DNA from: a virus
Taxonomy: Duplodnaviria > Caudoviricetes
Direction: 5' to 3' (one strand)
Length of the DNA: 64,000 nt
Virus record (IMG/VR): IMGVR_UViG_2595698964_000001
Span: 1 to 64,000 of that record
Positions within the stretch are counted from its first letter, which is position 1. Each line of letters starts with the position of its first letter. Of this stretch, positions 16,128 to 39,536 are shown in pieces. Below the pieces are notes generated by a model that had not been told where the DNA came from, did not search any database, and saw nothing but the letters and a program-made list of their open reading frames with translations. Made by a program: the position numbers and the translations under genes.

Positions 16128-16139
16128 ACATAATAGGGC

Positions 16140-16213
16140 TTGCTAAACAATAATCTACATAGTACAATTGTATTAAATAACACTAACAACTGAGTTAAAA
16201 AGGAGAGGTTGTA
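16140..16213 (+). promoter_or_regulatory. Class-I early header (sigma-A promoter + ACTGAGTT-SD leader)
   Basis: TTGCTA-17bp-TACAAT, then ACTGAGTTAAAAAGGAGAGG before ATG 16214. Confidence 0.8.
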
Positions 16214-17065
16214 ATGAGCAAAGACATCGTAATCAGCGAACGAGTGGATAGAAACGGTACAAAACACCAAGAGGTCGAAACTAACTGTGACCGTTGCGGC
16301 GGCGCGGGACGCTCTGACAAATGGACATTCACTGGTAAAGTTTGCTATAAGTGCTGGGGTAGTGGTCGGATGACTATCAAGAGAAAGCTTTACACTCCTG
16401 AACATGAAGAAAAGCTCCGTAAGCGTCGCGAACAAGCAGCGAAGAGGAAACTACTTAAAGCAATGGAACAAGCCGAGAAACGGAACGTAGAGGTGCTTAA
16501 AAATTGGGGATACCATAATGGTTCTGTCTACGCGGTATTAGGTGACACTTATAAGATAAAAGATGAGCTAAAAGAAGCCGGAGCAAGATGGGGCGGAAAC
16601 GTAATAGGTTGGTTTTTCTCTGAGAAACCTAGTACTTGGGAGACTTGTGAACTAGATGTTGAAAAGCTTGTTTGGTACAACAACATCGGAGAAGTGCATA
16701 AAAAGGACTTCGCGGACTACAAGGACTACGTAAAAGAACAAAAACGTAAACTTGAGCCTCAAAGTGAATGGGTAGGAGAAGCGGGCGACAAGGTAGAGCT
16801 TGAACTTGAGGTGGTTAACTCGTTCTGGTTTGAATTCGAGAGTCCATACCATTATGGAACTAGTAGCGTTTGTGTTAACAAACTCCGAGATGACTCCGGT
16901 AATGTGTTTGTATGGAAAACGGGAAGAGACTTAAAACAAGACGCGGACGATCAAGGAATAGTTAAGCTTAAAGGTACTATCAAGGAACACAATAGTTATA
17001 ATGACGAAAAGCAAACTGTTCTCACGAGATGTCGAGTCAAAAATGTTTCAAAAAGCACTTGCTAA
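16214..17065 (+). CDS. Zn-finger (CxxCxGxG) plus C-terminal OB-fold-like nucleic-acid-binding protein
   Basis: CDRCGGAG...CYKCWGSG. C-terminal WVGEAGDK...GNVFVWKT...LKGTIKEHNSYNDEKQTVLTR resembles an OB fold. Confidence 0.6.
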   Translation: MSKDIVISERVDRNGTKHQEVETNCDRCGGAGRSDKWTFTGKVCYKCWGSGRMTIKRKLYTPEHEEKLRKRREQAAKRKLLKAMEQAEKRNVEVLKNWGYHNGSVYAVLGDTYKIKDELKEAGARWGGNVIGWFFSEKPSTWETCELDVEKLVWYNNIGEVHKKDFADYKDYVKEQKRKLEPQSEWVGEAGDKVELELEVVNSFWFEFESPYHYGTSSVCVNKLRDDSGNVFVWKTGRDLKQDADDQGIVKLKGTIKEHNSYNDEKQTVLTRCRVKNVSKSTC

Positions 17066-17129
17066 GTGTAACAATAAATAGTATGATTAACTTGTAAGAT
17101 AATCCGAGTTGAAAAAGGAGACGATAATT
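17056..17129 (+). promoter_or_regulatory. Class-I early header
   Basis: CACTTGCTAAGTG palindrome; TTGCTA-17-TATGAT; TCCGAGTTGAAAAAGGAG before ATG 17130. Confidence 0.85.
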
Positions 17130-17543
17130 ATGAAAAAGTTTGATGCAGCTAGTAACATGGAGATTGTTTCTTCTAAAGAATTTAAGGATTCTATCCGGTT
17201 TGCGGTTGAGGAAACTCAACGTAACGTTGACGCGGGAGACACTATTATGGGTAAGTCCTTCTTCGGTACAGTAGTTGCTTATGATTCAAAAGTTGGCGTA
17301 GTCAGAGCCTTCGCGGTTCGCGACTATGGCGGTCGGTCGGAAGGGCTAAATGCTTTGGGGAGAACGGCTAGTCACGTCTCTAACCTTGAGGAACATTCTA
17401 TCCTTACTATTATCGACGCTGAAGAGTTCACACCAAACTGTCACAGCGGGTATTCGTCTCAACGGAACGAGTTTGAGAAGGTCTTGCTTGAGAATCGCTT
17501 TATGAAAGTTTACATAAACATCTTAACGGGAGGGCGTAATTGA
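17130..17543 (+). CDS. Hypothetical early protein (start corrected to ATG 17130)
   Basis: The AAGGAG SD lies inside the track's first codons, so the real start is 21 nt downstream. Confidence 0.7.
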   Translation: MKKFDAASNMEIVSSKEFKDSIRFAVEETQRNVDAGDTIMGKSFFGTVVAYDSKVGVVRAFAVRDYGGRSEGLNALGRTASHVSNLEEHSILTIIDAEEFTPNCHSGYSSQRNEFEKVLLENRFMKVYINILTGGRN

Positions 17544-17817
17544 TATGGAGTACAAAGGTAGTTACGGAAAAACGGTAAGGGTTACTGTTGAAAAGGATTT
17601 GGACGGTAAAACTGTAAACAACGAGCTTCCACATGTTGTAACGTTCTACATTGATAGCGACGATGAAATTGTAGGGATTTATCCTTTAGTTCCGAATGGA
17701 CTTTCTAAGGACGAACTTCTAAGCGTACAACCTTACAAACACGAGGTCTGTACACATGACTTAGAACTCGTTGAATAAGGGCGTGTATTCGCCCTTAATG
17801 TTTTTACATAAAAACAA

Positions 17818-17899
17818 TTGCTAAGTGCATCTACATATAGTATGATTAAGTTGTAAACGAGATACACTAAAAACTGAGTTGAAAAAGGAGAGGTTTAAA
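17818..17899 (+). promoter_or_regulatory. Class-I early header
   Basis: TTGCTAAGTG; 17-bp spacer; TATGAT; ACTGAGTTGAAAAAGGAGAGG before TTG 17900. Preceded by hairpin 17776-17797. Confidence 0.85.
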
Positions 17900-18418
17900 T
17901 TGACAAAACTAAGAGGGTATGTAGTAACTTCTGTGGATTCTAAAGGCGTTAGAAGAACAACGCACTTAACTGGAACATCTTTTACCAATGCGTTGGACAA
18001 AGCTAAAGCTATGATATCAAAGGCTGAACTTAAGTTCATAGATAGCTTTGATGTACAAATTATTGATGTCTCGCAAGAAACAAAAACGTTTCTACAAAGA
18101 CACAATCCGGATCAATCCGTTGCGATAACACCTAATAACACAAAACTCCTCGTATCTTCCAGAAACGTTGATGAATACTACGCACAAGACCTTGTTGAGA
18201 AAGACTCCGATTTCTGGGATACTATGTTAAAAGATTTACGCGAGCCTACGCCTGTAAACTTCTATGGTACATACGGGGAAGTCGCAAAAAGTTGGGATTT
18301 GGACTCGGGAAAAACTTACATCGTGTTCAGACCTCTAAACGAGGAAGGGTTCAAACTCGTTACTAGGCTAGCTGGTTGTCAAATTAACGCTAAAGAGGAG
18401 AACGCATCAAATGAATAA
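17900..18418 (+). CDS. Hypothetical early protein (start corrected to TTG 17900)
   Basis: SD spacing places the start at MTKLRGY. Confidence 0.65.
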   Translation: MTKLRGYVVTSVDSKGVRRTTHLTGTSFTNALDKAKAMISKAELKFIDSFDVQIIDVSQETKTFLQRHNPDQSVAITPNNTKLLVSSRNVDEYYAQDLVEKDSDFWDTMLKDLREPTPVNFYGTYGEVAKSWDLDSGKTYIVFRPLNEEGFKLVTRLAGCQINAKEENASNE

Positions 18419-19133
18419 TCTGACTAGCATAAAAGTACCTAAGAAGTATCAACAGATGATCGCAGACATCTACCCGGACTCAGAAGGGAATGGGTACTGG
18501 TGTCATAGTAAAGCGGGGTATGGATTCGAGGAATGGGAAGGTGCTGAGATTGCGAGAGAGGACACCAAAAAGATGATGCTACATACAATCCGTTCATTGA
18601 GACCTTATAAGGAGGATGAAAGATGATACAAGAAGAAACCGTTACAGTTTTCGCGACAAAAGTGGGTAAGAAGCTTTACGAGGAGGGTAAGAGATTTCTC
18701 GCGATAGATCGTCCACCGAGCTACGTTGAGAAGCTCGCTCATATACACCCATATAATCTGGTAGACGGTAAGTCGGTCTACCAGAAAGACCATAAAATGT
18801 TTGCCGAGTACACAGAAGCGTTAGTATTTCCAAAGCCAATTTCCGTTATAGACGTTAGAGACGAAGTGTTTTATAATGAGGAACAGGACTACCGTAAGCG
18901 TATAAGGGTGTTTACTGTAATCCCTAGACAAATGATACCTACTGTCGATCCATTGGAGACCGCAAAACTAAAAGAGGCTTCCACAAGTGAACTCATCGAG
19001 TTATACGAGCTCTCAGTTGAAACTCATCATAAGTTTGAGAGACACCAAAAAACAAAACAGTTTAGGGTCGCCCTCGATAATCTCAACAATTGTAAAGAAG
19101 AACTAAAAAGACGACTCGGGAAGGGATAAAACT

Positions 19134-19430
19134 ATGCTACCTACTAATCACATCAACAACTACCTTGTAAAAAGTCACAAACTTGGTGCTAGAGGTCTTC
19201 GTGGAGTGTACCGTTTTCCAAATAACTACGGCGCATCCGTTGTAGTGGGCGGGTTGGTAACTGCGAATCAAGGTAACTACTATCTTGAACTAGTGGTTCT
19301 CCGATTTCATAGCGAAGATGATGAGGACTTCTCACTGGACTACGATACTCCAATCACTGATGACATAATGATATTTGATAATGAAGAAGAACTTATACGA
19401 ACGCTCGAAGCCATAAAAGAGCTATGGTAA
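19134..19430 (+). CDS. Conserved hypothetical phage protein
   Basis: YRFPNNYGASVV...LELVVL...LDYDTPITDD motif, seen widely in phages. Confidence 0.65.
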   Translation: MLPTNHINNYLVKSHKLGARGLRGVYRFPNNYGASVVVGGLVTANQGNYYLELVVLRFHSEDDEDFSLDYDTPITDDIMIFDNEEELIRTLEAIKELW

Positions 19431-19720
19431 TGAGTTACAACTTCCTGAATAAAGGAGCTGACAGCCTATGTTAGAAGTAGTCGTTGAAGGAGCCGACCAA
19501 GGCGTTACGCTTATCAAAATGGAGGAGAAGGCTTTTGATAATCTTCGCCTTGGTAGTATTATTGAAATTGATGATACTGAACATGGAGGCTATATTTCAT
19601 TCTATCGAGTTGATAAAATTCTTACTGACAAACTTGTTGTTACTCCATACCTTCGTAATTATGTAAAAACATATTCAGTGAGAGATGAATTATACAAAGA
19701 TTATCCAAGTTACTGCTATG

Positions 19721-19741
19721 AATAATAATAATAATAATAAT
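19721..19741. repeat. (AAT)7 trinucleotide microsatellite
   Basis: aataataataataataataat spanning the stop codon of 19468-19725. Confidence 0.9.
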
Positions 19742-19891
19742 AGATTGGACGTGTTAAAATGAACCTACAAGAACAGCTTAGAAAAATTAACGAGATTAAT
19801 AAAAAGCGTAAACTTGAGGAGCAAAAACAAGACGAAGCTTTTGAAAGAATCTTAGACCAGCAAATTCCTGTCGAGAGGGTGGATAACGAAG

Positions 19892-20173
19892 ATGAGTAAA
19901 CTTAGAATAAGTCACCATCCGCAAGTCCCGTGTAAGGCATTTCACGTCGAGGTCTCTGACCTCGATGAAGCCATTAAGATACGTAACATTCTAGTGAACT
20001 ATGATTTGTTTCAATTTGAGAATCGGATTAAACCAGACTATGCCAACATGACGACTCTCGAAGAGTATGATGAAACAGAGGACGCTTGGCTACAATGGTA
20101 CAACGAAGACGGGCTTGATTTTGACGAATATCTTAGAGAGCTACATTGGGAGGGGGAAGAGCGAGTCAAATGA
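19892..20173 (+). CDS. P22 gp17-like protein (superinfection-exclusion/anti-abortive-infection family)
   Basis: LRISHHPQVPCKAFHVEV...YDLFQFENRIKPDYAN matches the P22 gp17 family pattern. Confidence 0.7.
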   Translation: MSKLRISHHPQVPCKAFHVEVSDLDEAIKIRNILVNYDLFQFENRIKPDYANMTTLEEYDETEDAWLQWYNEDGLDFDEYLRELHWEGEERVK

Positions 20174-20495
20174 TGAGCGTTTTATCTGTCCCTACTCTAT
20201 TGAGTTCGGCTATCAATTTATGTAAACAGGAGTATGGAGCTTGTAACTACTTGGAAATTTCTAGACCTCTCTACGTTTGTTACAAAGAAGTTACCTTGGC
20301 GACAAGACTTTTCGGAGATGAGGAAGACCTCCGAGAAAAAGTTGAGTTTATTATAACTGACGATGTTGGATACTCTTGGAAAGCTACGCGAGAAAAAGGT
20401 GGTCAAGGAATCGAGATGACTTTGACAAGATAAGGGGAACTTGTTGAAGTTCCTCTCTGATTCTATTAAAATTAAACTATAGGAGGAATACATAT

Positions 20496-20768
20496 ATGAA
20501 GCGGTCACTATTGACTTTACCGTTACTCTTACTCTCCGTTTCTGGTTGTTCTTATGAAGCAAGTTCTGAAGAAAAGAAATGGGACTCCGGGAGGTTTGAG
20601 GAAGTATCAAAAGAGACATCATTCGGTAAATACGACTTTGAAACTTATGTCGTAGCCGATAAGATAACAGGGTGTCAATACGTAGTTACGGGCGACACTC
20701 GCGCAATTGCCTTGACCCCAGTTATAAACCCAGACGGTAAACCATATTGCGAGAAGGTGAAAAAATGA
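20496..20768 (+). CDS. Lipoprotein (DUF6440-like)
   Basis: Lipobox VSGC after a hydrophobic stretch; YVVADKITGCQY...LTPVINPDGKP. Confidence 0.65.
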   Translation: MKRSLLTLPLLLLSVSGCSYEASSEEKKWDSGRFEEVSKETSFGKYDFETYVVADKITGCQYVVTGDTRAIALTPVINPDGKPYCEKVKK

Positions 20769-21170
20769 ACACAAACAAAGTAGTAGCTACGATAGAGCAT
20801 GAAATCAAGGTTGGAGACCCCGGGAGACTCGTAAACTTGAGTTCGTTTCTAAATGTTGTTGTAACACGCCTTTGTACCATAGATGGACTACAAGATGGAC
20901 CATTAAAGTCAATAGCTTTAGAACAAGTCACAAATCCTACGTACAAAATGGTTGACCGAGGTACTGTGTGGGTAGTCGCTAAAGAGTTTAATGTAGAAGC
21001 GGGAAAACCCAACCCGTATAGTACTATGGAGATCATTTATCCGTTGGAACGATTTATCCAACTCTTTGTCCCTCTCGTAAGAGTGGACGGAGACTATGAC
21101 TACAAAGATGTGCCTATAAGCGATCTAGAAATCAACACCTTCTGAAAAGAAGGTGTTTTTATTCAAAAGA

Positions 21171-21252
21171 TACTTGATAAGTGTATCATCGTATAGTATG
21201 CTTAATGTAGCTTGAATAACACTAATAACTGAGTTGAAAGTGAGGCGTTATA
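21171..21252 (+). promoter_or_regulatory. Class-I early header
   Basis: TACTTGATAAGTG; TTGATA-17-TATGCT; ACTGAGTTGAAAGTGAGG before ATG 21253. Preceded by terminator 21134-21160. Confidence 0.8.
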
Positions 21253-23641
21253 ATGCTAGCTGTTAAATTTGACAAAGGCATCAACGTTACTATGTATTCA
21301 CCTAAGACTCGTACAGAAGTTTCTGCTAGACACCTTTATAAAGACCTCCCGGAGCTTCTCTCTGGGGTCGGGAGCGTAATAGTTGACTACCCCTTCGGAA
21401 TGCGGGAAACTCGCGTTAAACAGCTTGACAAGCTTGGATTTAGACTTATTAATCAACTTAAGTTTGACGACTCAGCGCCTCATAAAAGAGTAGTTGAGAT
21501 CTGGAATAGAACAACCAAGGAGGAAGCAGTATGAATACAGAATACTTTTTAACAGCTATCCAAACTCTCGAGAAAAGAGAGTCACAACTTAAATGGGAGC
21601 TCTCGGAGCTGTATAAACGTAAAGAGTACCTTGATAACCTCGAGAAACGCTACAAAGATGCTGTCGACCCAAAGGTTATCGAGATGAGCAAACTACAAAT
21701 TGAGTTCGCTACGAAAGACCTTGAAGCGGTATCTGCGGCGTATAAAGCTTTTCAAAGCTGGTAATATTTGCCAACTGTTATATTATGTATAAGAAAGGAG
21801 GTGGAAGCTTTGGCGGGACTCCTATCAAACAAATCTTGGCAAGCCCAAGAGTACTACAACGAGTACCTAGTGCTTAAAAAGCAACTGTTGAGCCTTACAG
21901 AGGTGCGAAACATTAATAGCACCTTTAAAGCGGACAACACTAAGATTACAGAGGAAATCAATGAGAAAACGGCAAGGTTTAAAATCGTACTTTCCCGACT
22001 TAAAGAACAAGGAGTGTCTATGGAGGACTTAGTCCTACTCAGCGCTGGAATTGATGTTGACTCTAAGGATTAAACACTAAACAACTGGAAGGAGTTTTAC
22101 AATTGGAACAAATTATTGCAAAGTCTGGTAACTTTACATACTTACTGAGAGAAGACGCGAGAGGGACATACAGCATTAGCATCAGAGACGCCCGCGGTAA
22201 AGAGACTTTCCTCAGAGGCGGTTATTCAGACTCTTCTGAAGCTATTAACATGGTGAAGGAGGCTATAGAAAAACACAAACATGCTAAAGAGGCGCGTGTA
22301 AAGTTTAAGGGTGTCGATTTTCGATTGATTCCCGATTCTACACTGATAGAAGAAATATACTACGGAGGACAATACTTGGGAGACATTGTGACAGTCAAAA
22401 ACAAATTTTGTGTTGTCCCGAGTAGGTTTGTCGAGTCTTACAAAAACACTTTCGCATTCAAGGAAGATGCTGTGAAGGAGCTACTTCGTTTGTACGGACA
22501 CCCGGTTGTAAAAGAATAAGTGAGGAAAACTCCTCACTTATCTACATGTTTACACTTGACTACTGTCCTTGTGTATAGTACAATTATTATGATCTTTAAA
22601 ATCATGGTGTAAAACAACTAGAGGTGACGAAAATGAAGTTTATATTCAAAGCTAAACCTAAGAAGTGTCGTGAGTGTGGAGCTCATTTCTTCAGCGAACA
22701 CTGGGCTGTATGTAACAAATGTCTTTCTAAAAGGAGTTGGTGGTCTTGAAACGAGTAAACAAGACAAAGGGTAACTTAAAATCTGTTATAGACCGACTTG
22801 ATGATGCTAGCGGCGCGTTGTACAACGCAATTGATAACCTGTCTCGCATGAATGGTCTTGGAACAGAAATCGAACAGCTTGTTGAAAAGTTGGATCCATC
22901 TAGAATTGACTTACTGAAACACGAACTTATCGAGTTATTGGAACAGAAAGGAGAGCAATGGTAATGGCTTACATATTTGTGGAAGCAACCTCTTCCCCGT
23001 TTGGACACGGGGAGAGGGAAACTTGGATATGCAGTGAATGTAGTCGGGAAGTCGTTGTCATGTCTTACGGAGGACGACGAAACAACAGCGAACTCGATAA
23101 CCCATGCCGTTGCTTGAAAAAGTTTACACTAAAACCTCACCATAAAGCTATGATTCAAAAATACAATTTAGGTAAACGTGAGTAGGAGGAATGAAAATGA
23201 CATTCAAAGATGACTTGATTTGCGCTACAAAGTTTGTTGCTTGTTATGTTCCTGTATTCCTGTTAATATTAGTGTTTCCGTCTTTCTTTATCGCTCCCGC
23301 GTACATTGACCCGGACTTTACTGCAATGTTGCAACTGTTGTCTATAACCATTACTGCTGCTGTCGTTGTATTGTCGTACTTATTCGTAGTAGCTGCGAAA
23401 ATAATCGGATTCTAGGAGGTATAACATGTATAAACTTGAAACAAAACTAGAGGAACTTACAGATAAACTCTCTTCTGAGCTGGAGTCTCTGACTAAGTAC
23501 GAGGTTACTGGAAAGCCCATCGAAAGTATAGAGTTACAAGCAAAACTGTTACTAGAACTTATTGAAGACACAGAGTTTAATATGAAATGGTCTGTAAAGA
23601 AAAAGCTTGATGAGATTATAGACGAGTGCGAAAGAAAATGA
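21253..23641 (+). other. Run of small hypothetical genes (21253, 21531, 21768, 22103, 22633, 22737, 22958, 23191, 23426)
   Basis: Contiguous ORFs with RBSs. 23191 is hydrophobic (two predicted TM segments). Confidence 0.7.
22553..22584 (+). promoter_or_regulatory. Sigma-A promoter, CACTTGACTACTG variant
   Basis: TTGACT-17-TACAAT after hairpin 22516-22541. Same 13-mer as at 37140-37152 (minus). Confidence 0.7.
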
Positions 23642-23662
23642 GGTGCCTTATATAAGGCACCT
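23641..23662. terminator. Bidirectional terminator
   Basis: Perfect inverted repeat AGGTGCCTTATATAAGGCACCT between convergent genes. Confidence 0.75.
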
Positions 23663-23667
23663 TTGTT

Positions 23668-24060
23668 TTACAAGAAATTTGGATCTTCAGAAACATAATG
23701 AACTTCGTCTTCGCCGAAAGGTATTACAAAAACCTCAACGTCCATATCTTCACCATCTTCGCTTTCTTCCGCGTCTACGTGAACTGTATATACTCGGTTG
23801 ATATGCTCTCTCGGAACTTCATCCCGCATCTCCGCGCCGAGGTTATTCCAAAACTCTTCGTCAAAGAACCTTTTCAGTATTTCTGTAACTCTGTCCTCGG
23901 GGAGATCGCCCGCGTAATAAAATTCTCCATCTAACGATGTTTGATCATCCAAATTATGTACAAACTTGAACTCTTCTGGATCATAACCATTCTCCTTACC
24001 AAGCTTTTCTAGCGCTACTAGGTTAGACTCATAGTCATCTCCCATAAATAGTTTACCCAT
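23668..24060 (-). CDS. Highly acidic early protein (DNA-mimic candidate)
   Basis: 130 aa with ~37 D/E vs ~10 K/R by hand count; has its own class-I header. Confidence 0.65.
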   Translation of the reverse strand: MGKLFMGDDYESNLVALEKLGKENGYDPEEFKFVHNLDDQTSLDGEFYYAGDLPEDRVTEILKRFFDEEFWNNLGAEMRDEVPREHINRVYTVHVDAEESEDGEDMDVEVFVIPFGEDEVHYVSEDPNFL

Positions 24061-24132
24061 TATAACCTCTCCTTTTCCAACTCAGTATTATTACACATTA
24101 ATTGTACTATACTTTGTAACAGTTAACAAGTG
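24061..24132 (-). promoter_or_regulatory. Class-I early header
   Basis: Reverse strand: CACTTGTTAACTG; TTGTTA-17-TACAAT; ACTGAGTTGGAAAAGGAGAGG before ATG 24060. Confidence 0.8.
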
Positions 24133-24146
24133 ATTTACATGAGAAT

Positions 24147-24176
24147 GGAGTACAAATTTGTAATTTCATCTTTATT
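24147..24176 (+). promoter_or_regulatory. Class-II promoter motif
   Basis: GGAG-N19-CTTTATT upstream of 24228, divergent from the class-I header. Confidence 0.6.
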
Positions 24177-24227
24177 TAATTAAGGTGTCAAACCTCACTA
24201 AATACTCAAACAGAAGGAGACTAAACT

Positions 24228-26896: not shown

Positions 26897-27432
26897 CAAC
26901 TTACTAAAAGCTTTTTACAAAGGGTGTCGAATCCTTTCTCTAGATAGTTGTTTATAACGGTCTCTAAGGGCATCGTCTCTAGAGCACAAACTTCCGCCTC
27001 AATAAGCTGTCCTGTTTGAATATCGACTAGAAGCAGCCCCCAGTTTCCGCTAGTTGTGAACGTTGGCTCAACTTCCTTCTCGACCAACTCTACAGGTTCA
27101 TCTTCAAGATAGTCTTCTACGTCGTCTTCAATCGTGTCGTATAAATCAAACTCATCATCAATATACTCTTCCAATTTCGCTCTCTTAACCTTAACATCTC
27201 GAAGTAGCTTCAGCATCTCAAGCCGGATTAGCCGCATTGAATAGTCAAAATCTTCATCCTCAACGATGATGTCTATTATCGTGTCAAGAGGGATTCGCTT
27301 TCCCATATAATCTACAAGAGTTCTCGCGGTCTTAGGTACTGAACTCGAAATAACTAATTTTCTAGGAAAACTTAATGTAACAAATTCGTCCTCAGTTTCT
27401 ACGATGAACGTAAGGGTATTATGTTCAACCAT
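26896..27432 (-). CDS. Hypothetical early protein with acidic tract (start corrected to ATG 27432)
   Basis: The header SD precedes MVEHN; contains EEYIDDEFDLYDTIEDDVEDYLEDE. Confidence 0.65.
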   Translation of the reverse strand: MVEHNTLTFIVETEDEFVTLSFPRKLVISSSVPKTARTLVDYMGKRIPLDTIIDIIVEDEDFDYSMRLIRLEMLKLLRDVKVKRAKLEEYIDDEFDLYDTIEDDVEDYLEDEPVELVEKEVEPTFTTSGNWGLLLVDIQTGQLIEAEVCALETMPLETVINNYLEKGFDTLCKKLLVS

Positions 27433-27513
27433 GATAACATCTCCTTTTAACTCAGTTATTGGTGTTGTTCTTTGTACACTAATCATACTATCAATGACGT
27501 CACTTAGCAAGTG
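27433..27513 (-). promoter_or_regulatory. Class-I early header
   Basis: CACTTGCTAAGTG; TTGCTA-17-TATGAT; ACTGAGTTAAAAGGAG. Confidence 0.85.
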
Positions 27514-28343: not shown

Positions 28344-28601
28344 TTAAAACACATTTAAAGCCGCAGTATAGAGTCCTAGCTCTTTTAGGGCTTCCGGGTC
28401 GGATTCTTCTCCAAGAACTCTCTCCAAGCGAGTATTCAACTCCTCGCCCAATCTCTTTTGTAAATGCTCTTTTAGATCGGCGGGTAACTTTTCGCCGTTC
28501 TTGATATAGCGAAGAATTTCTGACTCAGGTGTCTCATCTTCTCCGTTTGCCCAATTTTTAAGAACTTCCTCTACAAATTTACTTACTTCTAATCTTGTCA
28601 A
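28344..28601 (-). CDS. Hypothetical early protein (start corrected to TTG 28601)
   Basis: Follows a class-I header; helical and charged. Confidence 0.65.
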   Translation of the reverse strand: MTRLEVSKFVEEVLKNWANGEDETPESEILRYIKNGEKLPADLKEHLQKRLGEELNTRLERVLGEESDPEALKELGLYTAALNVF

Positions 28602-28686
28602 TTTTAACCTCTCCTTTTTCAACTCAGTTAGTAGTGTGTTTCAACTACAGTTTTATTATACTAAATGCCCGTTCACTTAGCAAGTG
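28602..28686 (-). promoter_or_regulatory. Class-I early header
   Basis: CACTTGCTAAGTG; TTGCTA-17-TATAAT; ACTGAGTTGAAAAAGGAGAGG. Confidence 0.85.
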
Positions 28687-29547: not shown

Positions 29548-29615
29548 GCACCTATGTCGTAATAGAGTAAAGATTTGATAAGCCCCCTTTCTTTAGCATG
29601 AAAGGGGGCTAAATT

Positions 29616-30449: not shown

Positions 30450-30450
30450 T

Positions 30451-30783
30451 TTACTTAAATAGGTTAAACATCTCTTCGATCTCTGCCTTTGTTTCTTTGT
30501 TAAAAGGTAGTTGTTCAAAATCATATGTAGCTGTGCTTTCCTCGTTGAATATTAACTCAGTTACTTCGTCAAGATCGTAAGCCTTCTGCAAGCTGTCTAA
30601 GAGGTTAAAAGATGGTTCCCCTATATAAGGGAGGTCTTTAATCAAAACGCCCTCTGTAAGGCTTATAGGATGCTCAGAGAAGTCATTAAGCGTAAGTAAA
30701 ACCTTTTTACCATTTAATTCAAATTCCTTAGCTAGCATATCCGTGTCAGCGCCTTCTAAAACTACCCAACCTTGTTTTGTCAT
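30451..30783 (-). CDS. Acidic hypothetical early protein
   Basis: 110 aa with its own class-I header. Confidence 0.7.
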   Translation of the reverse strand: MTKQGWVVLEGADTDMLAKEFELNGKKVLLTLNDFSEHPISLTEGVLIKDLPYIGEPSFNLLDSLQKAYDLDEVTELIFNEESTATYDFEQLPFNKETKAEIEEMFNLFK

Positions 30784-30857
30784 CTTTACCGTCTCCTTTT
30801 GTAACTCGGATTATCTTACAAACCAATCATACTACGCTGTGTTACACTTAGCAAGTG
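30784..30857 (-). promoter_or_regulatory. Class-I early header
   Basis: CACTTGCTAAGTGTAACA; TTGCTA-17-TATGAT; TTGTAAGATAATCCGAGTT..AAAAGGAGACG. Nearly identical to 17056-17129. Confidence 0.85.
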
Positions 30858-30881
30858 TTTTTGTAAAGTTTTGTAAAACAT

Positions 30882-30911
30882 GGAGCGTACTTTTGAAGTG
30901 CGTTCTTTATT
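30882..30911 (+). promoter_or_regulatory. Class-II promoter motif
   Basis: GGAGCGTACTTT-N11-CTTTATT, divergent from the class-I header. Confidence 0.6.
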
Positions 30912-31436
30912 TAAGTAAACAACAAGAGAAGGAAGATGTTAACATGAAACAAACATTAATTTTTGCAACAAAACTTTCTTTAACACTCATCCTAACATAT
31001 TCAGTACTAATGCCAATAGCTTGTTTATGCGGAGCTACACTACAAGACGCGTTTGTAGGCTACGCTTTTTGGACAGGACTATCTGTTACATTAATTTATC
31101 TGATTTCAATAATATGGGAGATGTTTATTAAATTCTAGGAGGATACTCTATGTTTTTTGTCAAGGCTTTTAAAAAGATACGAAAGTGGTTTAACTAACTT
31201 GTAGGAGGATGGTAACATGGGCTGGTTAATTTTATGTGTCAGCATTGTAGTTATTTACACTTTCCTACTAGCAAATACTTACATCATGAAAGCTGAAAGT
31301 GATATCAGTGAACTTGAGTCTTTAGACTCTGGAGATGAAGAGCTTCTATGAAGCTCTCTTTTTCATTTCTTACTATATTTTCCTTAGACTTACTCCTACA
31401 TTACTTTCTGTACCACAAAGAGAAGGAGGAGTTAAT

Positions 31437-33227: not shown

Positions 33228-33228
33228 A

Positions 33229-33256
33229 GAAAGACAGCGCCTAAGCGCTGTCTTTT
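33229..33256. terminator. Bidirectional terminator
   Basis: AAAGACAGCGC-ctaa-GCGCTGTCTTT between convergent genes. Confidence 0.8.
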
Positions 33257-33683
33257 ATTCTACCGTAATTTTTACTTTTGTCCCATCAGGGTATGGTAAT
33301 AATTGATGACCTACCCAAGAACCAGCTCCGCGGTTATCTGAAGGTGAAATGTATTTAACGCTTGCGCCTTCTCCTCCTTCTTCGCACATGGCCATAGGGA
33401 ACTCATCCCGATCAAAACCCTTCTTTGTAGGGAAACCTTTGAGAGACAACTCGCGTCTCGCATCCGCACCGTCACGATCTATTGTACAGATGTCACTATG
33501 TCCGGCTTCGATAGCCTCACGAATATGCTGCCCGGTTTCAGGATAACGGTAAGATGGAAAACTCAATGTCTTCTCATAGTCCGCTACAACCTCTGTTGGC
33601 TCACATCCGGGAGATGAGAGAGCCGAAAACCCAAAGGTTAAGACTAATACAGCTCCAAATACTCCTGCTAAAAACGTTTTCAT
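33255..33683 (-). CDS. nucB: NucA/NucB-family secreted deoxyribonuclease
   Basis: Signal peptide; [63 protein letters not shown]. Confidence 0.9.
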
Positions 33684-33749
33684 TTTTAAACCTCCGTCTC
33701 TACTTTGGATACAATTTCAACTAACAATGTAGATCAAGTCCAAGTTCGC

Positions 33750-34388
33750 TTATCTAGAAACCCATAACAGACCGGGAGACATCTTGTCTTCAAATACTCC
33801 CTCCGGGAGTCTACGTTTACCTCCGCGTTTTCTACGTCTCTTCACATTCTCTTTCAAGGCTTCAATTTCCTCTGCTTTCATAGAGTTGACTTGGTTCAAA
33901 ATTCGCGTTGCTTCGTCCAAAGAAGTACAATAAGACAAGATAACCTTATGATGTTGTACACAGTAACGTCCGCCTTTGAAGTGTCTATTGAACCAAATAT
34001 ACGCTCTGTACTCTTTTCGTTTAGGAGGAAAGAACCCGTTTTTCACAAAAAAGTCTCTTATTTGGCGTGCTTCCTCCAGTGTCTTAGCTGTTCTACTTCG
34101 GGCTTTACCCTTAGAAATAAACATAACCTGATAACCCGTCTTTCCCTTATAGATATATTTTGAGCGTCTAAGGCTAGGGTCTCTACGCTCAATTAGTTTT
34201 AGTCTAGCTAACTCCTCACGAACTTTATCAAGCTTGTTTCCCGCTAATACAAGCTCCCTTATTCTTTCCGCATTTTCTTTTATTTTAAGCGTTCCTATAT
34301 GAACTCTTTTGTCAACATCAATCGTTCTTCCCGTCACGTAATAGCATCTATAGCGCGTTTTGAACGACACAGCGCAAGCTGGCTTCAT
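33750..34388 (-). CDS. Basic protein with repeated AP2-like DNA-binding modules
   Basis: Repeated beta-beta-beta-helix pattern (YIYKGKTGYQV...AKTLEEARQIRD; YIWFNRHFKGGRYCV...TSLDEATRI). Confidence 0.5.
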   Translation of the reverse strand: MKPACAVSFKTRYRCYYVTGRTIDVDKRVHIGTLKIKENAERIRELVLAGNKLDKVREELARLKLIERRDPSLRRSKYIYKGKTGYQVMFISKGKARSRTAKTLEEARQIRDFFVKNGFFPPKRKEYRAYIWFNRHFKGGRYCVQHHKVILSYCTSLDEATRILNQVNSMKAEEIEALKENVKRRRKRGGKRRLPEGVFEDKMSPGLLWVSR

Positions 34389-34390
34389 TG

Positions 34391-35899
34391 TTATGCTCCT
34401 TTCACAACAACTAATGGTTTACAAACTGCTACTACTGAAGCAAGTTTCGCTCCTACTACAGAATCAATAATTTGGTCGACATCCTTGTAAGCTTGAGGAC
34501 ACTCATCTAAGATAGTCTCGAGAGACTTCTGGTTGACTACAATCTCATCGTCTTCTCCAACTCTCAAGCTCTTAGCAAACTCGTCAACCGTAACGACCTC
34601 TCTTGTAGCTCGACGACTACGAACACGACCAGCCCCATGACAGATAGAATAAAAGTTCTTTACACCCTCGTCTTTACCAAGCATAATGTAGCTTGACGTC
34701 CCCATAGAGCCCGGAATAAGCGCCGGGTGTCCAGTTTCCTTAAACACCTTTGGGTTTAAATGGTGTCCAGCCGGAAGAGCTCTTGTAGCTCCTTTACGAT
34801 GTACGATATGCGGAGAGTTTCTATGAAACTCGACTTGAGCATAGTTATGCATAAGATCATATAAAAGCTCAGTTTCCACATGTTCACCCATAACATCCCG
34901 GAAAGCTTGGGATACACCATACGCAATCATATGACGGTTCGCAACAGCGTAGTTAAGAGACGCGCGTAGCATAGTATAATAGTCTTGTCCGACCTCACTA
35001 TTGAACGGAGCAAAGACAAGGTTTGGATCAGGAGATTCAACACCCCATCTATACATCTCCTCTTTAAACGCTTTCACAGCATCGCGTCCAGCTCTTGCGC
35101 CGAACCCTCTTGAACCGGAATGGACCATAAATACAATTTGCCCGTCGAATAAACCCCACTTTTTCGCCGTTTCTCGATTCTCGTCTTCAATAGAGGCACT
35201 TTGTACCTCGATAAAGTGATTACCTCCTCCAAGAGTCCCAAGTTGATCACGAACAGAGGTGAATACTTTAGAGTCTCTGTTAAAGAGTTTCCCTTGTCCA
35301 TGTTTGTCCAAATACGCCTTAACGTCATCTTCCAAATCAAAGCCAGAAATTTCAACATTTTCTATGTCAGATTCGTTAAAGAAGAACTCAGAAGGCACCC
35401 CTCCCAAACCTTTAGTAGCGATATGCCAGGGATCGAGACTTTCAGAGTAGTGTCCTTTGACAGTTTGTCTCGCAGAACCTTTTCGGAAGTTAGACTCATC
35501 AACGGTATTTACATATTTTTCAATTCCAGCTACAAGAGCTCGGCGTAATTCCACATCCTTTAAATCGTTCTTATGAAGATTCGTCCTATGTAGTCGCATA
35601 CCACACCCGATGTCACTTCCAACGATGGATGGTGAAATGAACCCATCTTTAGCATTCCAAACAGCAGTAGTCCCTATACAAGTACCTACTCCAACATGCG
35701 CGTCCGGCGTGTAGCTCATATGAACATTACGAGGTATTTGTAGGTTATTTCGACCCATTTCAAATATTCGAGGTTCAAGGTTTTGGTACACCTCTTCATT
35801 AGCGAACACATGTAACTTTCCACTTACGTCTCCAGCGAACTCTTCAATATAGTGATTATTTCCTTTATTATGAGTTAAACGCATGTTAACGAATTTCAT
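34391..35899 (-). CDS. rtcB: RtcB family RNA 3'-phosphate ligase
   Basis: PDAHVG, VGSDIGCG, LGTLGGGNHFIE, HSGSRG, HNYA, HRKGATRA, PGSMG, HGAGR and AYKD motifs. Confidence 0.95.
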   Translation of the reverse strand: MKFVNMRLTHNKGNNHYIEEFAGDVSGKLHVFANEEVYQNLEPRIFEMGRNNLQIPRNVHMSYTPDAHVGVGTCIGTTAVWNAKDGFISPSIVGSDIGCGMRLHRTNLHKNDLKDVELRRALVAGIEKYVNTVDESNFRKGSARQTVKGHYSESLDPWHIATKGLGGVPSEFFFNESDIENVEISGFDLEDDVKAYLDKHGQGKLFNRDSKVFTSVRDQLGTLGGGNHFIEVQSASIEDENRETAKKWGLFDGQIVFMVHSGSRGFGARAGRDAVKAFKEEMYRWGVESPDPNLVFAPFNSEVGQDYYTMLRASLNYAVANRHMIAYGVSQAFRDVMGEHVETELLYDLMHNYAQVEFHRNSPHIVHRKGATRALPAGHHLNPKVFKETGHPALIPGSMGTSSYIMLGKDEGVKNFYSICHGAGRVRSRRATREVVTVDEFAKSLRVGEDDEIVVNQKSLETILDECPQAYKDVDQIIDSVVGAKLASVVAVCKPLVVVKGA

Positions 35900-36128
35900 T
35901 TAGCGTCTTCTCCCTTCCATGGATAAGGTTACTTCTGTGTATTCCGGATCATTCATCAGTTCAAAAAGTGAATTAAAGTTAAGTGTATGTCGCCCAAAGT
36001 CGGGAGTTTTAGCGACTCCCTCTTTGAGCATAATAGTGAGCTCTGCTATCGCGGCTTCAAAAGAGTCCTGCTTATCAATACGATCTATCTCACTTGTTTT
36101 CACATAAAACAACATATTAAGTCCCTCC

Positions 36129-36611
36129 TTAATAGATCAAGCTAACAAGTTCCTTTATGGAGTTCTTATCGTAAATTAAAGTTTTAGCAACACTAGTTCC
36201 AACCCCGTCTGTTTCGGTTACTACGACAGAAGCACTATTTGTATCAGCGAGTTGCTTGGTAAAACAGAACTCCATGTTAAGGTGTTTTTCCAGCGGAATA
36301 ATAAGGTCATCGACAACTTTCTTGAATTTTGCGTCAAGCGGGTGATCAATGAACACCGAGGTCTTAGCGTTAGGGTACTCAGGGAGCTCTAACAACAATT
36401 TAAATAAAGCCGGGAAGTCTAACATAGTCGGGATATATTGAAGCCTTGTATCGTCTATATCTCCACCAATAGCTTTTAAACGTCGATCTGTTTCGCGGGT
36501 TACAGTCTCGGTAAGAATAATTACGCGGTTACCTTTCTCTTGAGCCTCTTTAACAAGTTGAAGCATTACAAGAGTCTTTCCTGATCCGGGTCTTCCAAAA
36601 ATTGATTTCAT
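36129..36611 (-). CDS. Small P-loop NTPase
   Basis: Walker A GRPGSGKT at the N-terminus; Walker-B-like SVFID. Confidence 0.7.
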   Translation of the reverse strand: MKSIFGRPGSGKTLVMLQLVKEAQEKGNRVIILTETVTRETDRRLKAIGGDIDDTRLQYIPTMLDFPALFKLLLELPEYPNAKTSVFIDHPLDAKFKKVVDDLIIPLEKHLNMEFCFTKQLADTNSASVVVTETDGVGTSVAKTLIYDKNSIKELVSLIY

Positions 36612-36662
36612 TTTTTCTCCTCCTAATCGTTAGTGATTACCTATCAAGTAAAGTGACCTTTT

Positions 36663-37089
36663 TCAATCTTCTCTCCCTAACAAACCAAGTTTCTGAAGAT
36701 ACAACCGTCTAGAAAGTTTGTCTACTTTTTTACCATCATCCTCAGAAACTCGTCGAATAGCTTGAGAAGCCTCCTCGGCAAAGTGTATTAATAGATGGTT
36801 ATCAGAAAACGCTTTGATCTGTCTAAGTAATGCTCCTAGCTCAACCAATACTTTCTCTTCATTATAATTATAACTGATATCATTGACCTCCTCAAACGCT
36901 TCTTCGCGCTAGTTGTAACACTTCGTCAATAACTCCAGACCTAAACGCTCTGTCAAGTTGATGTTCAAGTCGAATTTGCTCAATTTGAACAGGTTCTTGA
37001 TTAACTTCCTTTTCATTGATCCTTTTCTCGAGGTCTATAATTTTGTACGCGATGTCTTTAATAAGTTGCTGTTTTTTCTTCTCAGTCAA
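36663..37089 (-). other. Two small hypothetical genes heading the leftward RtcB operon
   Basis: ORFs 37089-36892 and 36848-36663 with RBSs. Confidence 0.6.
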
Positions 37090-37120
37090 TTGTTGTCACT
37101 CCTCTTGTCAGGATACTTCA

Positions 37121-37152
37121 AGCCTACTATAAAGGTCGTCAGTAGTCAAGTG
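37121..37152 (-). promoter_or_regulatory. Sigma-A-type promoter (CACTTGACTACTG variant) for the leftward operon
   Basis: TTGACT-17-TAGGCT on the minus strand. Confidence 0.55.
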
Positions 37153-37165
37153 ATTTCTTCAAACT

Positions 37166-37195
37166 GGAGAAAACTTTTCAAGCGAGACTTTTATC
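37166..37195 (+). promoter_or_regulatory. Class-II promoter motif
   Basis: GGAGAAAACTTT-N11-TTTTATC upstream of dCMP deaminase. Confidence 0.55.
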
Positions 37196-37214
37196 AATTA
37201 TGGAGGCTGATAAT

Positions 37215-37640
37215 ATGAGAACTGATTGGAATACTTATTTTATGGAGATCGCAAACGCAGTGAAAACTAGGTCAACGTGTGAACGACTTAACGTAGGTTG
37301 TGTATTAACAAAAGATAACAGAATAATAGCCACAGGGTATAACGGAAGTATATCTGGTCACCCTCATTGTGACGAAGACGGGATTGGTCACCTTATGTAT
37401 GAGAATGGTTGTAAGCGGACTATCCACGCAGAGCTAAACGCGTTGTTACAATGCGCTAAAAACGGCATAGCTACTAACGGGGCGACGGCTTATGTAACTC
37501 ACTATCCTTGCCCAGATTGTATGAAGGCTTTGAATCAAGCAGGGATTAAGAAGGTTTATTACAATGAGTACTATCCGCATAGGTATCGTAATGAATTTGA
37601 CTACGGAATCGAACTATTTTCATTAAAGGAGGGCAAATAA
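37215..37640 (+). CDS. dCMP deaminase (ComEB-like)
   Basis: RSTC.RLNVGC, TGYNG, HAELNAL and PCPDC Zn-deaminase motifs. Confidence 0.92.
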   Translation: MRTDWNTYFMEIANAVKTRSTCERLNVGCVLTKDNRIIATGYNGSISGHPHCDEDGIGHLMYENGCKRTIHAELNALLQCAKNGIATNGATAYVTHYPCPDCMKALNQAGIKKVYYNEYYPHRYRNEFDYGIELFSLKEGK

Positions 37641-37642
37641 AG

Positions 37643-38197
37643 TTGAAATCTAACAAAGTATACGTAGGACAAGGACGTGATTGTTTTACTGTCTACGTAA
37701 AAACTACAGAAGGTCTCGAGTACGTTGGTAGTGTAAAGGACAAAGAAGAGGCAATAAGAGTAAAAGAACGTCTCGCTGAGGGCACTGAATCTTACGAGTT
37801 TATTAAAAAGGAGCTTAGAAAAAGAGGGACTAAGAGGTCAACAACAGGACACAGAAATATATCTTGGAATCGTAAACAACTCTGTTATATTGTTAGTGTT
37901 AGAGGAGAGTATGTTGGGTTTACGAGAGAGCTTGACGAGGCAGTACGTATGAGGGACGCTTACCTTTCAAGCGGTGAAAAACCAGCTTGTAAGAAAAATC
38001 GTAATGGCGTATATGCGTATGAGGTAAAAAATGGATGGGTCATATGGTACAGAATGATTGTAGCCGGGACTCCAAAGAACCAATATGTTGGTCTAGTTGC
38101 GACCAAATCTGAAGCCGAACAAGTGAGAGAGGAACTTTTGAGTGGGGGAGACTACGAGACTATAAAAGAGAAGCTAAAAAATGAAAGAGGGCATTAG
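37643..38197 (+). CDS. Protein with three AP2-like DNA-binding modules (paralog of 33750-34388)
   Basis: YVGSVKDKEEAIRVKE, TTGHRNISWNRKQLCYIV...YVGFTRELDEAVRMRD and YVGLVATKSEAEQVRE. Confidence 0.55.
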   Translation: MKSNKVYVGQGRDCFTVYVKTTEGLEYVGSVKDKEEAIRVKERLAEGTESYEFIKKELRKRGTKRSTTGHRNISWNRKQLCYIVSVRGEYVGFTRELDEAVRMRDAYLSSGEKPACKKNRNGVYAYEVKNGWVIWYRMIVAGTPKNQYVGLVATKSEAEQVREELLSGGDYETIKEKLKNERGH

Positions 38198-39453
38198 CCC
38201 TCTTTCTTCGCCTCCCAAATCATCGGATATGAAGTATGCAAAATCCTTCCTTGTCCATCAAATAGAAACGTTTTTTCTTTCCAGCTGTCACAAGCGTTAG
38301 CTGTTGCCATTTTCGCGGTAATTAAATCCGTTTCGATAATCTCCTCATGCGTTTTCGATGCGATTTTATAAACCATTTTATTCGCCCTCCGCTTTCTCAA
38401 TTGATAATACTTCGATATTCAAAAACGTAGGCTGTTTTCTCCACTGTTCAAACGCCCTCATACTTTTGAACCTGCTGACAGATTTATTGCCTTTTGCATA
38501 CCAACTTTGGCGCCACGTTACACGAATCATCCTATTCACCCTCCCCTTGCACAATTTTTCTTAATTGTTCCCATGCTCCAAACTCGCTTGTATCGTAGAC
38601 GGTTATTTTAGGACTTAGCAATTCTTGGTGATATAAATTCAGGAGCATGAAGTTGAACTCCTTAATTGATGTAGGTATCTTTTTATTGTTCCACTCGATT
38701 TCGATTGTTGCCCCTGTAGGTATTTCACTATTTAATGTCCATCCTTTAATTGCTGTCGGTATTTCCATTTTATTTGCCCTCCTCTTTTTCGATAGTGCGC
38801 TTTAACGTTTCCTCTAACAACTCTGCGCCTTTGAAGTTTCCTTCTTCTTTAGCTCTCTTGATTGACATTTCCAAGGCTTTGATTGTTGTTTCGATCGTTG
38901 CCTTTTGTGGCTCCTTTTTCTCTCCGCCATTAACTTTAACGATTTGTATTGAGTTGATATGATTAAACTCTGGGTGTGTTTCCTCGATGTTTAGAATCTT
39001 TCTTGTATTTTCGTTTTGTTCTCCCCAGCTTCTCAGTGCTTTGTCGGCATCCTTTAACGTTTTGTGATAAGAAACTTGCAACTTAGTAGTCCCTAAATCA
39101 ACAAACTTTTTGTTTTCGTCTCTGCCATAGTCATTGAACTCGATTACCACCACATATTTGTAATCATTTACTTTTGAGTTTCTTGTTTTTGTTTTTCCGT
39201 TGAATGATACTGAGTAAAGTGTTTTTCCGTTCTTTTCTGTTGCTGTTACTACTGGTTTCTGTTTTTTCATTTTGATTTCCTCCTCGTAATGGTTGGTTGT
39301 ATAAGCTTAAGCTACTTCGCCAATTTGTTTTTTGTACATTGAGAGCTTCCACTCGAGCATCATCGTTTGCATTTCGTCTAAGTTACCAGTAGTAAGTTCG
39401 TTAGTTACCTCTTTGATTTTACCTTCGATAGTGTTGATTTCAACTTTTGTCAT
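38194..39453 (-). other. Leftward early operon of small hypothetical genes (39453-39307, 39270-38770, 38768-38532, 38400-38194)
   Basis: Follows a class-I header. The first gene is an untracked 48-aa ORF MTKVEINTIEGKIKEV...QIGEVA. Ends at hairpin 38183-38206. Confidence 0.7.
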
Positions 39454-39536
39454 CTAAATCGTCTCCTTTTTAACTCTGATTTAGTGTTTCTCGCTTACAA
39501 GTTAATCATACTACGTAGTGTACCACTTAGCAAGTG
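39454..39536 (-). promoter_or_regulatory. Class-I early header
   Basis: CACTTGCTAAGTG; TTGCTA-17-TATGAT; TCAGAGTTAAAAAGGAGACG. Confidence 0.85.

Follow-up and report, generated by a model that had tools for sequence, protein, structure and literature searches.

A family of putative early-expression headers with a conserved leader in an SPO1-like phage of Bacillus subtilis

Clustered early promoters are a textbook feature of SPO1-like phages, and the basic finding of the present study is therefore an ordinary one. The host-takeover module of SPO1 is reportedly set out by Stewart 1998 (Virology 246:329), a paper that we know through PMC7414437 and PMC10531801. According to the available parts of three accounts, the early genes of SPO1 are transcribed by the host sigma-A polymerase (PMC13401047, PMC10531801, PMC7414437), and the module comprises 24 genes that lie clustered within the terminal redundancy (PMC10531801); genes 37-49 of the terminal repeat read rightward and genes 50-60 leftward. 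Here we analyse the first 64 kb (64,000 nucleotides, called the window below) of the 143,986-bp virus record IMGVR_UViG_2595698964_000001, and describe a family of nine composite headers, each of ~75-88 nt from 3 nt before the -35 TTG to the start codon, that stand before single genes and short operons. We think it likely that these headers are early expression signals of an SPO1-like Bacillus phage, in which a host-read promoter is joined to a conserved leader.

The records closest to this genome are those of Bacillus phages SBSphiC (86% identity across 91% of a 15-kb query) and Goe26 (88% identity across 57%). Both belong to the Herelleviridae, subfamily Spounavirinae, and have B. subtilis as host, and the portion of a preprint that could be consulted describes SBSphiC as closely related to phage SP10 (10.1101/2025.06.06.658234). 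Judged by its nearest matches, the genome is that of an SPO1-like Spounavirinae phage of Bacillus subtilis, near SBSphiC and Goe26.

The layout of the region resembles that of SPO1. Headers on the plus strand occupy 16.1-21.2 kb and minus-strand headers 24.1-39.5 kb, each heading one to ~12 small genes, which gives the same convergent arrangement of tightly packed short operons with putative strong promoters of their own. In both phages there are many strong sigma-A-type promoters, each serving one or a few small genes without assigned function, with terminators between the units and an A-tract 5' of the -35 box. A polypurine Shine-Dalgarno (SD) box, ...AAAAGGAGAGGTT (also ...TTGTAAAAGGAGAGGTT before the start codon), is nearly letter-identical in the two, and by eye the ...AAAAGGAGAGGTT box of SPO1 early leaders is flanked by ACC/GGU or, for gp44, by AAAUC/GAUUU. 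The promoters and leaders differ, SPO1 having TTGAC(A/T), a TG-extended AATAAT-type -10 and GC-rich leader hairpins where this phage has CACTTGCTAAGTG ... TAGTATGAT with an A-rich leader; a profile of the headers matches the SPO1 repeat at four SD boxes only.

Other described systems share part of this design. Kayvirus vB_SauM-515A1, of the same family, has sigma-70-type early promoters by the dozen, with spacers of 17 bp and G-enriched starts ~6 bp past the -10, but its consensus is TTGACW, TRTGN, TATANT, and the part of the account available to us mentions no common leader (PMC7698491). A strong SD near the 5' end stabilises B. subtilis mRNAs, including an SP82 phage mRNA (PMC7509114, citing Hue et al. 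1995, in the section available). The headers are like these Bacillus stabilisers (the SP82 polypurine element, gsiB and the aprE leader) in bearing a near-perfect polypurine SD at most ~45 nt from the predicted 5' end, and differ from them, as far as that section goes, in that the SD is the ribosome site of the first gene and would lie in a loop that also has an invariant GAG and is closed by a covarying helix. PeSL elements of phages RB49 and phi1, in what we could consult of PMC2839356, combine a terminator hairpin, an AT-rich stretch, an early promoter, an SD and an ATG and are repeated among unknown genes of a variable region, a layout that the present headers resemble, some of them with a terminator-like hairpin close upstream; they belong to another phage family and host and have another sequence, and the conserved part of the present headers extends through a constrained 5' untranslated region (5'UTR) with a predicted SD-display helix. 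The discussion in the same source also brings to mind lambdoid morons, since 23664-24134 is a promoter with one gene, lying between two genes of the relatives, which uses a terminator and reads against the neighbouring operon; the promoters of morons are unrelated, whereas this inserted unit bears the family header.

Members, motifs and conservation of the header family

All nine headers of the original prediction were found on reading the sites. Their -35 TTG positions, by which we name them, are 16140+, 17059+, 17818+, 21174+, 24129-, 27510-, 28683-, 30854- and 39533- (the coordinates first given mark the C of CAC, 3 nt before the TTG, in seven copies; for 16140 and 17818 they fall on the TTG). 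A header opens with the A-tract, followed by the box CACTTGCTAAGTG with the -35 TTGCTA in its middle, ten unconserved bases and TAGTATGATTAA, which holds the -10 TATGAT. After the -10 comes (T)TGTAA, starting 0-6 nt and mostly ending 8-11 nt downstream, then a stretch of variable length, then (AC)(T/C)GAGTT(G)AAAAAGGAGAGGTT, and finally 4-5 bases and an ATG or TTG. The promoter pattern TTG(C/A/T)TA, 17-nt spacer, TA(T/C)(G/A)(A/C)T is present in 9/9. The shared boxes that had been described for the leader hold in part: GAGTT occurs in 9/9 and ACTGAGTT in 6/9, and ACACTA, said to be frequent, in 5/9, with ACACCA in one more.

These motifs are highly specific to the headers. TTGHTA-N17-TAYRMT has 10 matches in the window against 0.27 expected, a number that 0/100 shuffles reach; nine of them are headers and the tenth, 42375+, is unrelated. 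GAGTT-N0-3-AAARKGAG is matched nine times in the window (0.15 expected), each time at a header. Since this GAGTT-SD box is confined to headers and stands at none of the internal ribosome sites, it is not the general ribosome site of the phage; it accompanies only the first gene behind a promoter. Searched with an nhmmer profile of the nine headers, the full 143,986-bp genome yields precisely these nine at E-values of 1e-18 to 4e-26, and the next-best match (106615+, E 5e-5) is a tenth full header outside the window, so that the family exceeds nine. Promoter-only relatives were found with the profile at 22552+, 37164- and 51828+, and at 132696+ outside the window. Self-BLAST of the genome yields only header pairs among repeats of at least 40 bp, save for one unrelated pair, 55885-56025 with genome positions 92089-92223 (78% identity over 144 bp).

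The copies fall into subtypes, with 17059, 30854 and 39533 set apart from the remaining headers; 16140 is the most diverged copy and is without the palindromic -35 box. The pair 17059 and 30854 had been called near-identical and is indeed the closest, but at 64/77 bases (83%) the claim was overstated; the other header pairs share 63-79%. Likewise, most units were said to be closed by a hairpin, and this is clear in 6/9 (17059, 17818, 21174, 24129, 28683 and 39533), but no such hairpin was seen for the 16140 and 27510 units, and that of the 30854 unit is listed for the plus strand only. On the upstream side, a terminator-like hairpin lies within ~60 nt 5' of headers 17818, 21174, 27510 and 39533, is equivocal for 16140 and 30854, and is absent for 17059, 24129 and 28683. 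The longest run, behind 17818, has ~10 genes (~13 listed open reading frames (ORFs), 17900-21145). To the extent that sequence can tell, the description of the headers as a shared expression signal appears sound: each seems to be a sigma-A-type promoter with leader and SD, at the head of single genes or short operons for proteins of mostly unknown function. Coordinates are collected in Table 1.

Table 1. Headers, related elements and associated hairpins in the window (aa, amino acids).
Feature	Coordinates	Strand	Description
Header 1	16137..16216	+	-35 TTGCTA, 17-nt spacer, -10 TACAAT, leader, GAGTT-SD loop, ATG; E 1e-18
Header 2	17056..17132	+	short-leader subtype; stop codon of upstream 283-aa ORF falls within -35 box
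Header 3	17815..17902	+	after terminator 17776-17797; nhmmer E 4e-26
Header 4	21171..21255	+	after terminator 21134-21157; SD variant GTGAGG
Header 5	24058..24132	-	with 130-aa gene (23668-24060) forms cassette 23664-24134
Header 6	27430..27513	-	after terminator 27549-27527; 178-aa cargo
Header 7	28599..28686	-	heads four-gene operon 28601-27548
Header 8	30781..30857	-	short-leader subtype; closest paralogue of header 2
Header 9	39451..39536	-	three genes 39453-38532; terminator 38206-38183 downstream
Promoter-only relative	22553..22584	+	CACTTGACTA ... TAGTACAAT; within header 4 operon; without GAGTT leader; E 0.95
Diverged promoter-like relative	37108..37164	-	5' of leftward gene run containing RtcB; E 0.02
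Diverged promoter-like relative	51828..51889	+	TTGTAAAGTG ... TATACT; E 0.034
Two-way terminator hairpin	23640..23663	both	common to header 4 unit (+) and header 5 cassette (-)
SD-display hairpin (predicted), example	17867..17899	+	arms AAACU/GGUUU, loop GAGUUGAAAAAGGAGA

Comparison with the relatives allows selection on the header to be gauged. Positional orthologues exist for eight headers in SBSphiC and for five in Goe26; for 8/9 headers of the window the best SBSphiC match is the positional orthologue, at 90-97% identity against 63-83% among paralogues, and subtype-specific bases are retained in the orthologous headers. For each block we counted the positions that differ in any orthologue over the positions compared. 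The -35 box differs at 2/104 positions, the TAG, -10 and next 3 nt at 0/96, the 5' part of the leader at 5/177 (2.8%) and the GAGTT-SD box at 3/153, whereas the 10-nt promoter spacer differs at 15/80 (19%) and codon position 3 at 41/246 (17%); the figures for the upstream 57 nt and for codon positions 1 and 2 are 42/402 (10%) and 27/500. Fisher tests of the four conserved blocks against the spacer and third positions give p = 1e-5, 2e-7, 5e-7 and 2e-7. Between orthologues the promoter spacer thus drifts like third codon positions, which indicates that enough time has elapsed for free sites to change, and the whole 5'UTR is conserved like the promoter boxes. Because the leader stayed the same while free sites changed, it is held by selection as a whole, beyond the shared boxes. 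Among paralogues, too, the 10-nt spacer is scrambled and the blocks on either side of it are fixed.

A candidate hairpin displaying the ribosome-binding site

Folds of the leaders repeatedly pair the bases just 5' of GAGTT with those just 3' of GGAGA, forming a weak, covarying helix of 4-7 bp around a GAG...AAAAGGAGA loop, and an element like the example in Table 1 is found in the last ~35 nt of each header. The arms vary among copies and their complementarity is kept: AAACU/GGUUU in 17818, UAACU/GGUUA in 28683, CAACU/GGUUG in 16140, AUAAC/GUUAU in 27510 and 21174, CUAAAUC/GAUUUAG in 39533 and CAAAUC/GAUUUG in 106615, with UAACC/GGUUA beyond this genome, in the Bacillus thuringiensis phage YungSlug (MT416612.2) and in L006, a locus from the IMG/VR database. 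In 17 sequences the covariation score is 0.342 against 0.126 +/- 0.028 in shuffles, and 0/500 shuffles reach it. At E <= 0.1 the hairpin model has 10 matches in this genome, 10 in SBSphiC, 6 in Goe26, 17 in YungSlug and 1, a weak one, in SPO1. Rfam has 0 matches at E <= 1 in positions 15500-40500 of the window.

A second set was drawn up blind to structure. All occurrences of GAG-N2-6-AAAAGGAGA were taken, from this genome, from bases 1 to 50 kb of SBSphiC and from the collected YungSlug and L006 loci, which gave 34 distinct elements, two look-alikes within coding sequence included. Covariation in this set is 0.351 against 0.170 +/- 0.023 in shuffles, with 0/500 reaching it, a significance that shuffle tests overstate since the 34 elements are related to one another. 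Slid registers score 0.07-0.13, and changes on both sides are present at all 7 pairs. In an alignment-free count, 80.6% of the cells in the first five pairs are paired against 66.0 +/- 2.1% after shuffling (0/1000 reach this value), and the two coding look-alikes, which were retained in the set, show no pairing. Two candidates were rejected: an apparent empty header in SBSphiC (L002, 21572-21605), where the box is the end of a coding sequence and which is kept in the pair counts as a miss, and a 5'-terminal mini-hairpin GUAG...CUAC, visible by eye in 28683, YungSlug and L006 and inconsistent across the family.

The elements of YungSlug (16 pattern matches) are mostly preceded by a terminator, by a -35/-10 pair that has TAGTATGAT and by CTTGTAAG, so that the whole design, beyond the loop, is common across host species groups, although the YungSlug headers keep the -10 and leader and not the 13-bp -35 box. 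YungSlug has a family of its own of at least 13 composite headers across 0.7-131 kb (loci L026-L041), which carry an extra TTGACAA box ~25 nt 5' of the -35. Searches elsewhere returned little. Of two loci found by pattern scans of IMG/VR only L006 fits the profile, and another scan gave 0 loci; a metagenome scan gave 8 loci, none of which resembles the genome, two of them sharing a merely similar promoter core. In phages phiNIT1 and 049ML001, homologues of the cargo are present and this header is absent, other promoters or none standing there.

To the motif statistics, conservation pattern and covariation observed we would fit the following mechanism. The DNA half consists of the A-tract, the -35 TTGCTA inside its 13-bp box, the 17-nt spacer, the middle 10 nt of which are free, and the -10 TATGAT with fixed neighbours, TAG before and TAA after. 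Host sigma-A RNA polymerase would start straight after infection at the G 7 nt past the -10 (RNA 5' GUA...); in the part of the Kayvirus study that we could consult, RNA-seq places early starts, enriched in G, 6 bp past the -10 (PMC7698491). The RNA half would be a 5'UTR of 34-47 nt, the last ~33 nt of which may form the weak 4-7-bp helix and close a 14-17-nt loop with the invariant GAG and the AAAAGGAGA SD, the start codon following 8-9 nt after GGAGA. The proposed role of the helix is to keep the ribosome site open regardless of the gene that follows, and, together with the strong 5'-proximal SD, it would give high translation and protect the 5' end of the mRNA. The region of 16-40 kb would be the counterpart of the SPO1 host-takeover module, with gain and loss of small genes mostly independent of the headers.

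A number of points weigh against this account. Promoter activity, early timing and the start site are argued from consensus and by analogy. TTGCTA and TATGAT each deviate from the textbook hexamers and have no TG extension, and a generic sigma-70 scan finds 48 sites against 40.4 in shuffles of this AT-rich DNA; as that scan is barely above shuffles, it is the family-specific pattern and not the generic consensus that carries weight. In their favour, 9/9 headers have a -35/-10 pair of the sigma-A early type with a 17-nt spacer, and reach 9-10/12 matches in the generic scan. The SPO1 module sits in the terminal redundancy, and the linear 143,986-bp record has no end repeats. When the 50 ORFs in 16-40 kb were compared by tblastn with SPO1 bases 1-50,000, only one gave a match, the 178-aa cargo of 27510-, which weakly resembles the gp53 'kinase' region (39% identity across 49 aa, E 8e-7). 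Hardly any gene content is thus shared with SPO1, so that the term 'host-takeover module' expresses a likeness in layout and not in genes. As to the hairpin, two stricter covariation measures on the 34 elements are reached by 26 and 23 of 500 shuffles, the helix is weak (median -2.2 kcal/mol and 4 contiguous pairs), with 3 contiguous pairs and positive energy in 17059, 30854 and their orthologues, which make up the short-leader subtype, whole-leader folds show no extra stability over shuffles (z -1.5 to +1.1), and the single SPO1 match to the model has an E-value of 0.014. In view of the weak helix and the 3 pairs of the short-leader subtype, we rate the existence of the SD-display hairpin as moderately probable.

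Gene gain and loss and alternative explanations

The original prediction took the headers for a modular cassette system analogous to T4 PeSL elements, with a shared header that provides expression and possibly homology for gene swapping. In its full form, the ~80-bp header and the terminator beside it would serve as portable homology, and recombination between headers would insert, delete and swap genes, as proposed for the T4-type phages RB49 and phi1. The prediction had also reasoned that identical cargo and synteny in all relatives would reduce the headers to ordinary early promoters. The cargo is not identical beside some orthologous headers, and this part of the swapping idea stands; the use of headers as recombination homology is unsupported, and we consider the PeSL-like reading as a whole unlikely. 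What speaks for it is the PeSL-like layout amid unknown genes, as laid out in the consulted part of PMC2839356, the fact that headers are the only dispersed repeats of the genome long enough for homologous exchange, and differences in gene content at or beside headers among close relatives. Neither SBSphiC nor Goe26 has the cassette 23664-24134 (header 24129- and the 130-aa gene behind it), and the junction lies at a TTTACA repeat beside the two-way terminator. SBSphiC, at its orthologue of 30854-, has a 98-aa gene unique to that phage, placed precisely where the header would otherwise meet its usual first gene, and the ends of the insertion share only a few bases around ATGA. In both relatives a 137-aa gene lies just 5' of header 39533-, where the Goe26 junction bears an 11-nt partial duplicate of the header's upstream stretch.

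The junctions themselves argue otherwise. Among five inspected, four have repeats of just 4-11 bp and one has none, and none falls in two full headers. The junction without a repeat belongs to a two-gene insertion of SBSphiC (L002 37630-38535) between a stop codon and a terminator, which is absent from the window and has no header at its borders; one of its genes encodes a small protein with a lipoprotein-type signal (...LVGC...), and the other stands behind a header-like promoter of its own. Insertions and deletions also occur away from headers. A stretch of 13.5 kb with three headers (5943-19447) is present in SBSphiC and missing from Goe26, its right border lying within the header 17818 operon, and a levanase-like gene and a 212-aa gene (33750-34388; indel 33733-34391) come and go, the latter being absent from both relatives. 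Contigs from four public runs show joints at 22060>22531 (two studies), 22582>22747 and 29054>29565, none of them at a header; they contain no header-to-header joints, contigs being prone to drop rare forms. In these contigs a 138-aa ORF (22103-22519) is replaced by 34 letters in two studies and 29054-29565 by 826 letters in one study.

The sequences of the headers point the same way. With orthologues at 90-97% and paralogues at 63-83%, recent header-to-header exchange is argued against, 8/9 headers matching their SBSphiC positional orthologue best and the ninth, 24129, being absent from both relatives; moreover, 63-83% over ~80 bp with perfect runs shorter than ~20 bp is a poor substrate for homologous recombination, and the cargo homologues of phiNIT1 and 049ML001 do without the header. 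The region thus appears plastic, with headers that seem to travel with some genes in the manner of morons.

A different possibility concerns the DNA half. The 13-bp inverted repeat CACTT-GCT-AAGTG over the -35 could be an operator, through which a phage-made or virion-borne protein shuts off or tunes the early promoters as a set; we regard this as unlikely, though several features would suit it. The perfect box occurs 5 times in the genome, always in headers, and the 11-bp core ACTT-N3-AAGT in 6 headers and at 3 other genome sites. Its two arms hardly change from one orthologue to another, unlike the spacer next to them, which drifts, and we know of no sigma-A contact that includes the AAGTG right arm. 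An SPO1 enzyme lies behind the hydroxymethyluracil of SPO1 DNA. In the present genome a thymidylate-synthase-family gene with a 420-aa open frame adjoins a gene for an HU/TF1-like protein (genome positions 114860-115519 and 116561-116827, outside the window), a pair consistent, by analogy with SPO1, with modified thymine and a TF1-type DNA-binding protein. SPO1 itself combines TF1 with hydroxymethyluracil DNA, and TF1 binds specific sites in modified DNA (PMC10531801, available in part). Set against this, the YungSlug headers are without the box, and headers 16140 and 24129 are without a perfect repeat. The left arm overlaps the context of SPO1 early promoters (R-Y-TTGAC after an A-tract), so that ordinary promoter context may account for half of the symmetry. 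Early shut-off in SPO1 is ascribed, in the accessible part of the source, to Gp33 acting on polymerase and not to an operator (PMC13401047).

The RNA half invites a comparable proposal, to which we would likewise give low probability. It would be a dedicated cis-regulatory element of Spounavirinae early genes, common to B. subtilis phages and those of the B. cereus group, by which a post-transcriptional switch encoded by the phage finds its targets: a nuclease or repressor would recognise the loop and silence all early proteins together. RegB and RegA of T4 would be analogous in action to such a switch and unrelated to it. The palindromic -35 box could then be a matching switch at the level of DNA, and with the element the header would suit newly acquired genes in any sequence context. 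That the likeness of the headers is a mere trace of recent duplication of one promoter segment, which would then act as a generic promoter and ribosome site and in no other way, is very improbable: the copies can be aligned over their full length and fall into subtypes (17059/30854/39533 and the rest), as duplication would have it, but the paralogue spacer is scrambled between fixed flanking blocks, changes between orthologues are 6-9 times rarer in the conserved blocks than at third codon positions, the helix arms covary, and a related design is retained in a phage of another host species group.

Cargo, neighbouring genes and significance

The cargo of the headers offers few clues to function. 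The Pfam cut-off is reached by 0/10 proteins (the products of the nine first genes and of gene two in the 39533 unit), and next to nothing came from PHROGs; that second gene (166 aa, 38770-39270, minus strand) has a below-cut-off Pfam match to Ntox1, an RNase-like toxin, at E 0.0045. The 130-aa cargo of 24129 has no tblastn match in 50,697 phage records. Between headers, 33255-38197 holds a cluster of RNA/DNA enzymes, with a NucB-like nuclease, an RtcB RNA ligase and a tRNA adenosine deaminase, named after the Goe26 annotation. The levanase-like gene mentioned above, of glycoside-hydrolase family 32 (481 aa, 25427-26872, plus strand), has ~74% DNA identity with phiNIT1, SPG24, BSP18 and BSP21 and ~70% with SPO1-like phages, and is absent from Goe26.

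Interleaved genes on the plus strand apparently have another class of promoter. An SPO1-middle-like pattern, GGAGWA-N18-TTTNTTT, has 11 matches with one mismatch allowed, against 2.0 expected. The only exact match (24147-24177, plus strand) is 5' of the gene at 24228, beside header 24129-. Other sites resembling SPO1 middle (gp28-type) promoters, of the type GGAGTA-N18-TTT(A/G/T)TT(A/T), lie at 6133, 8397, 13203 and 53034 on the plus strand.

Two aspects appear to be new, as far as we have checked. In this lineage selection holds the whole 5'UTR as strongly as it holds the promoter boxes, and the end of the 5'UTR would form a covarying helix in which the ribosome-binding site is displayed, a design that extends to a phage from a different Bacillus species group. 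No prior description of such a constrained leader or SD helix was found in the literature searched, which did not include the papers on the SPO1 module, the SPO1 genome and the SP10 genome, any of which may describe promoters or leaders. The constrained leader with its predicted SD-display helix and the palindromic -35 box are best seen, on present comparisons, as lineage-specific refinements of known early signals.

If the hairpin works as we propose, the header would be a compact, portable expression header for Bacillus and would offer a handle on how these phages switch off early protein synthesis. By analogy with SPO1, the headers may also flag, with high specificity, the unknown genes that are made first, and could thereby serve as a filter for host-takeover and anti-defence genes.

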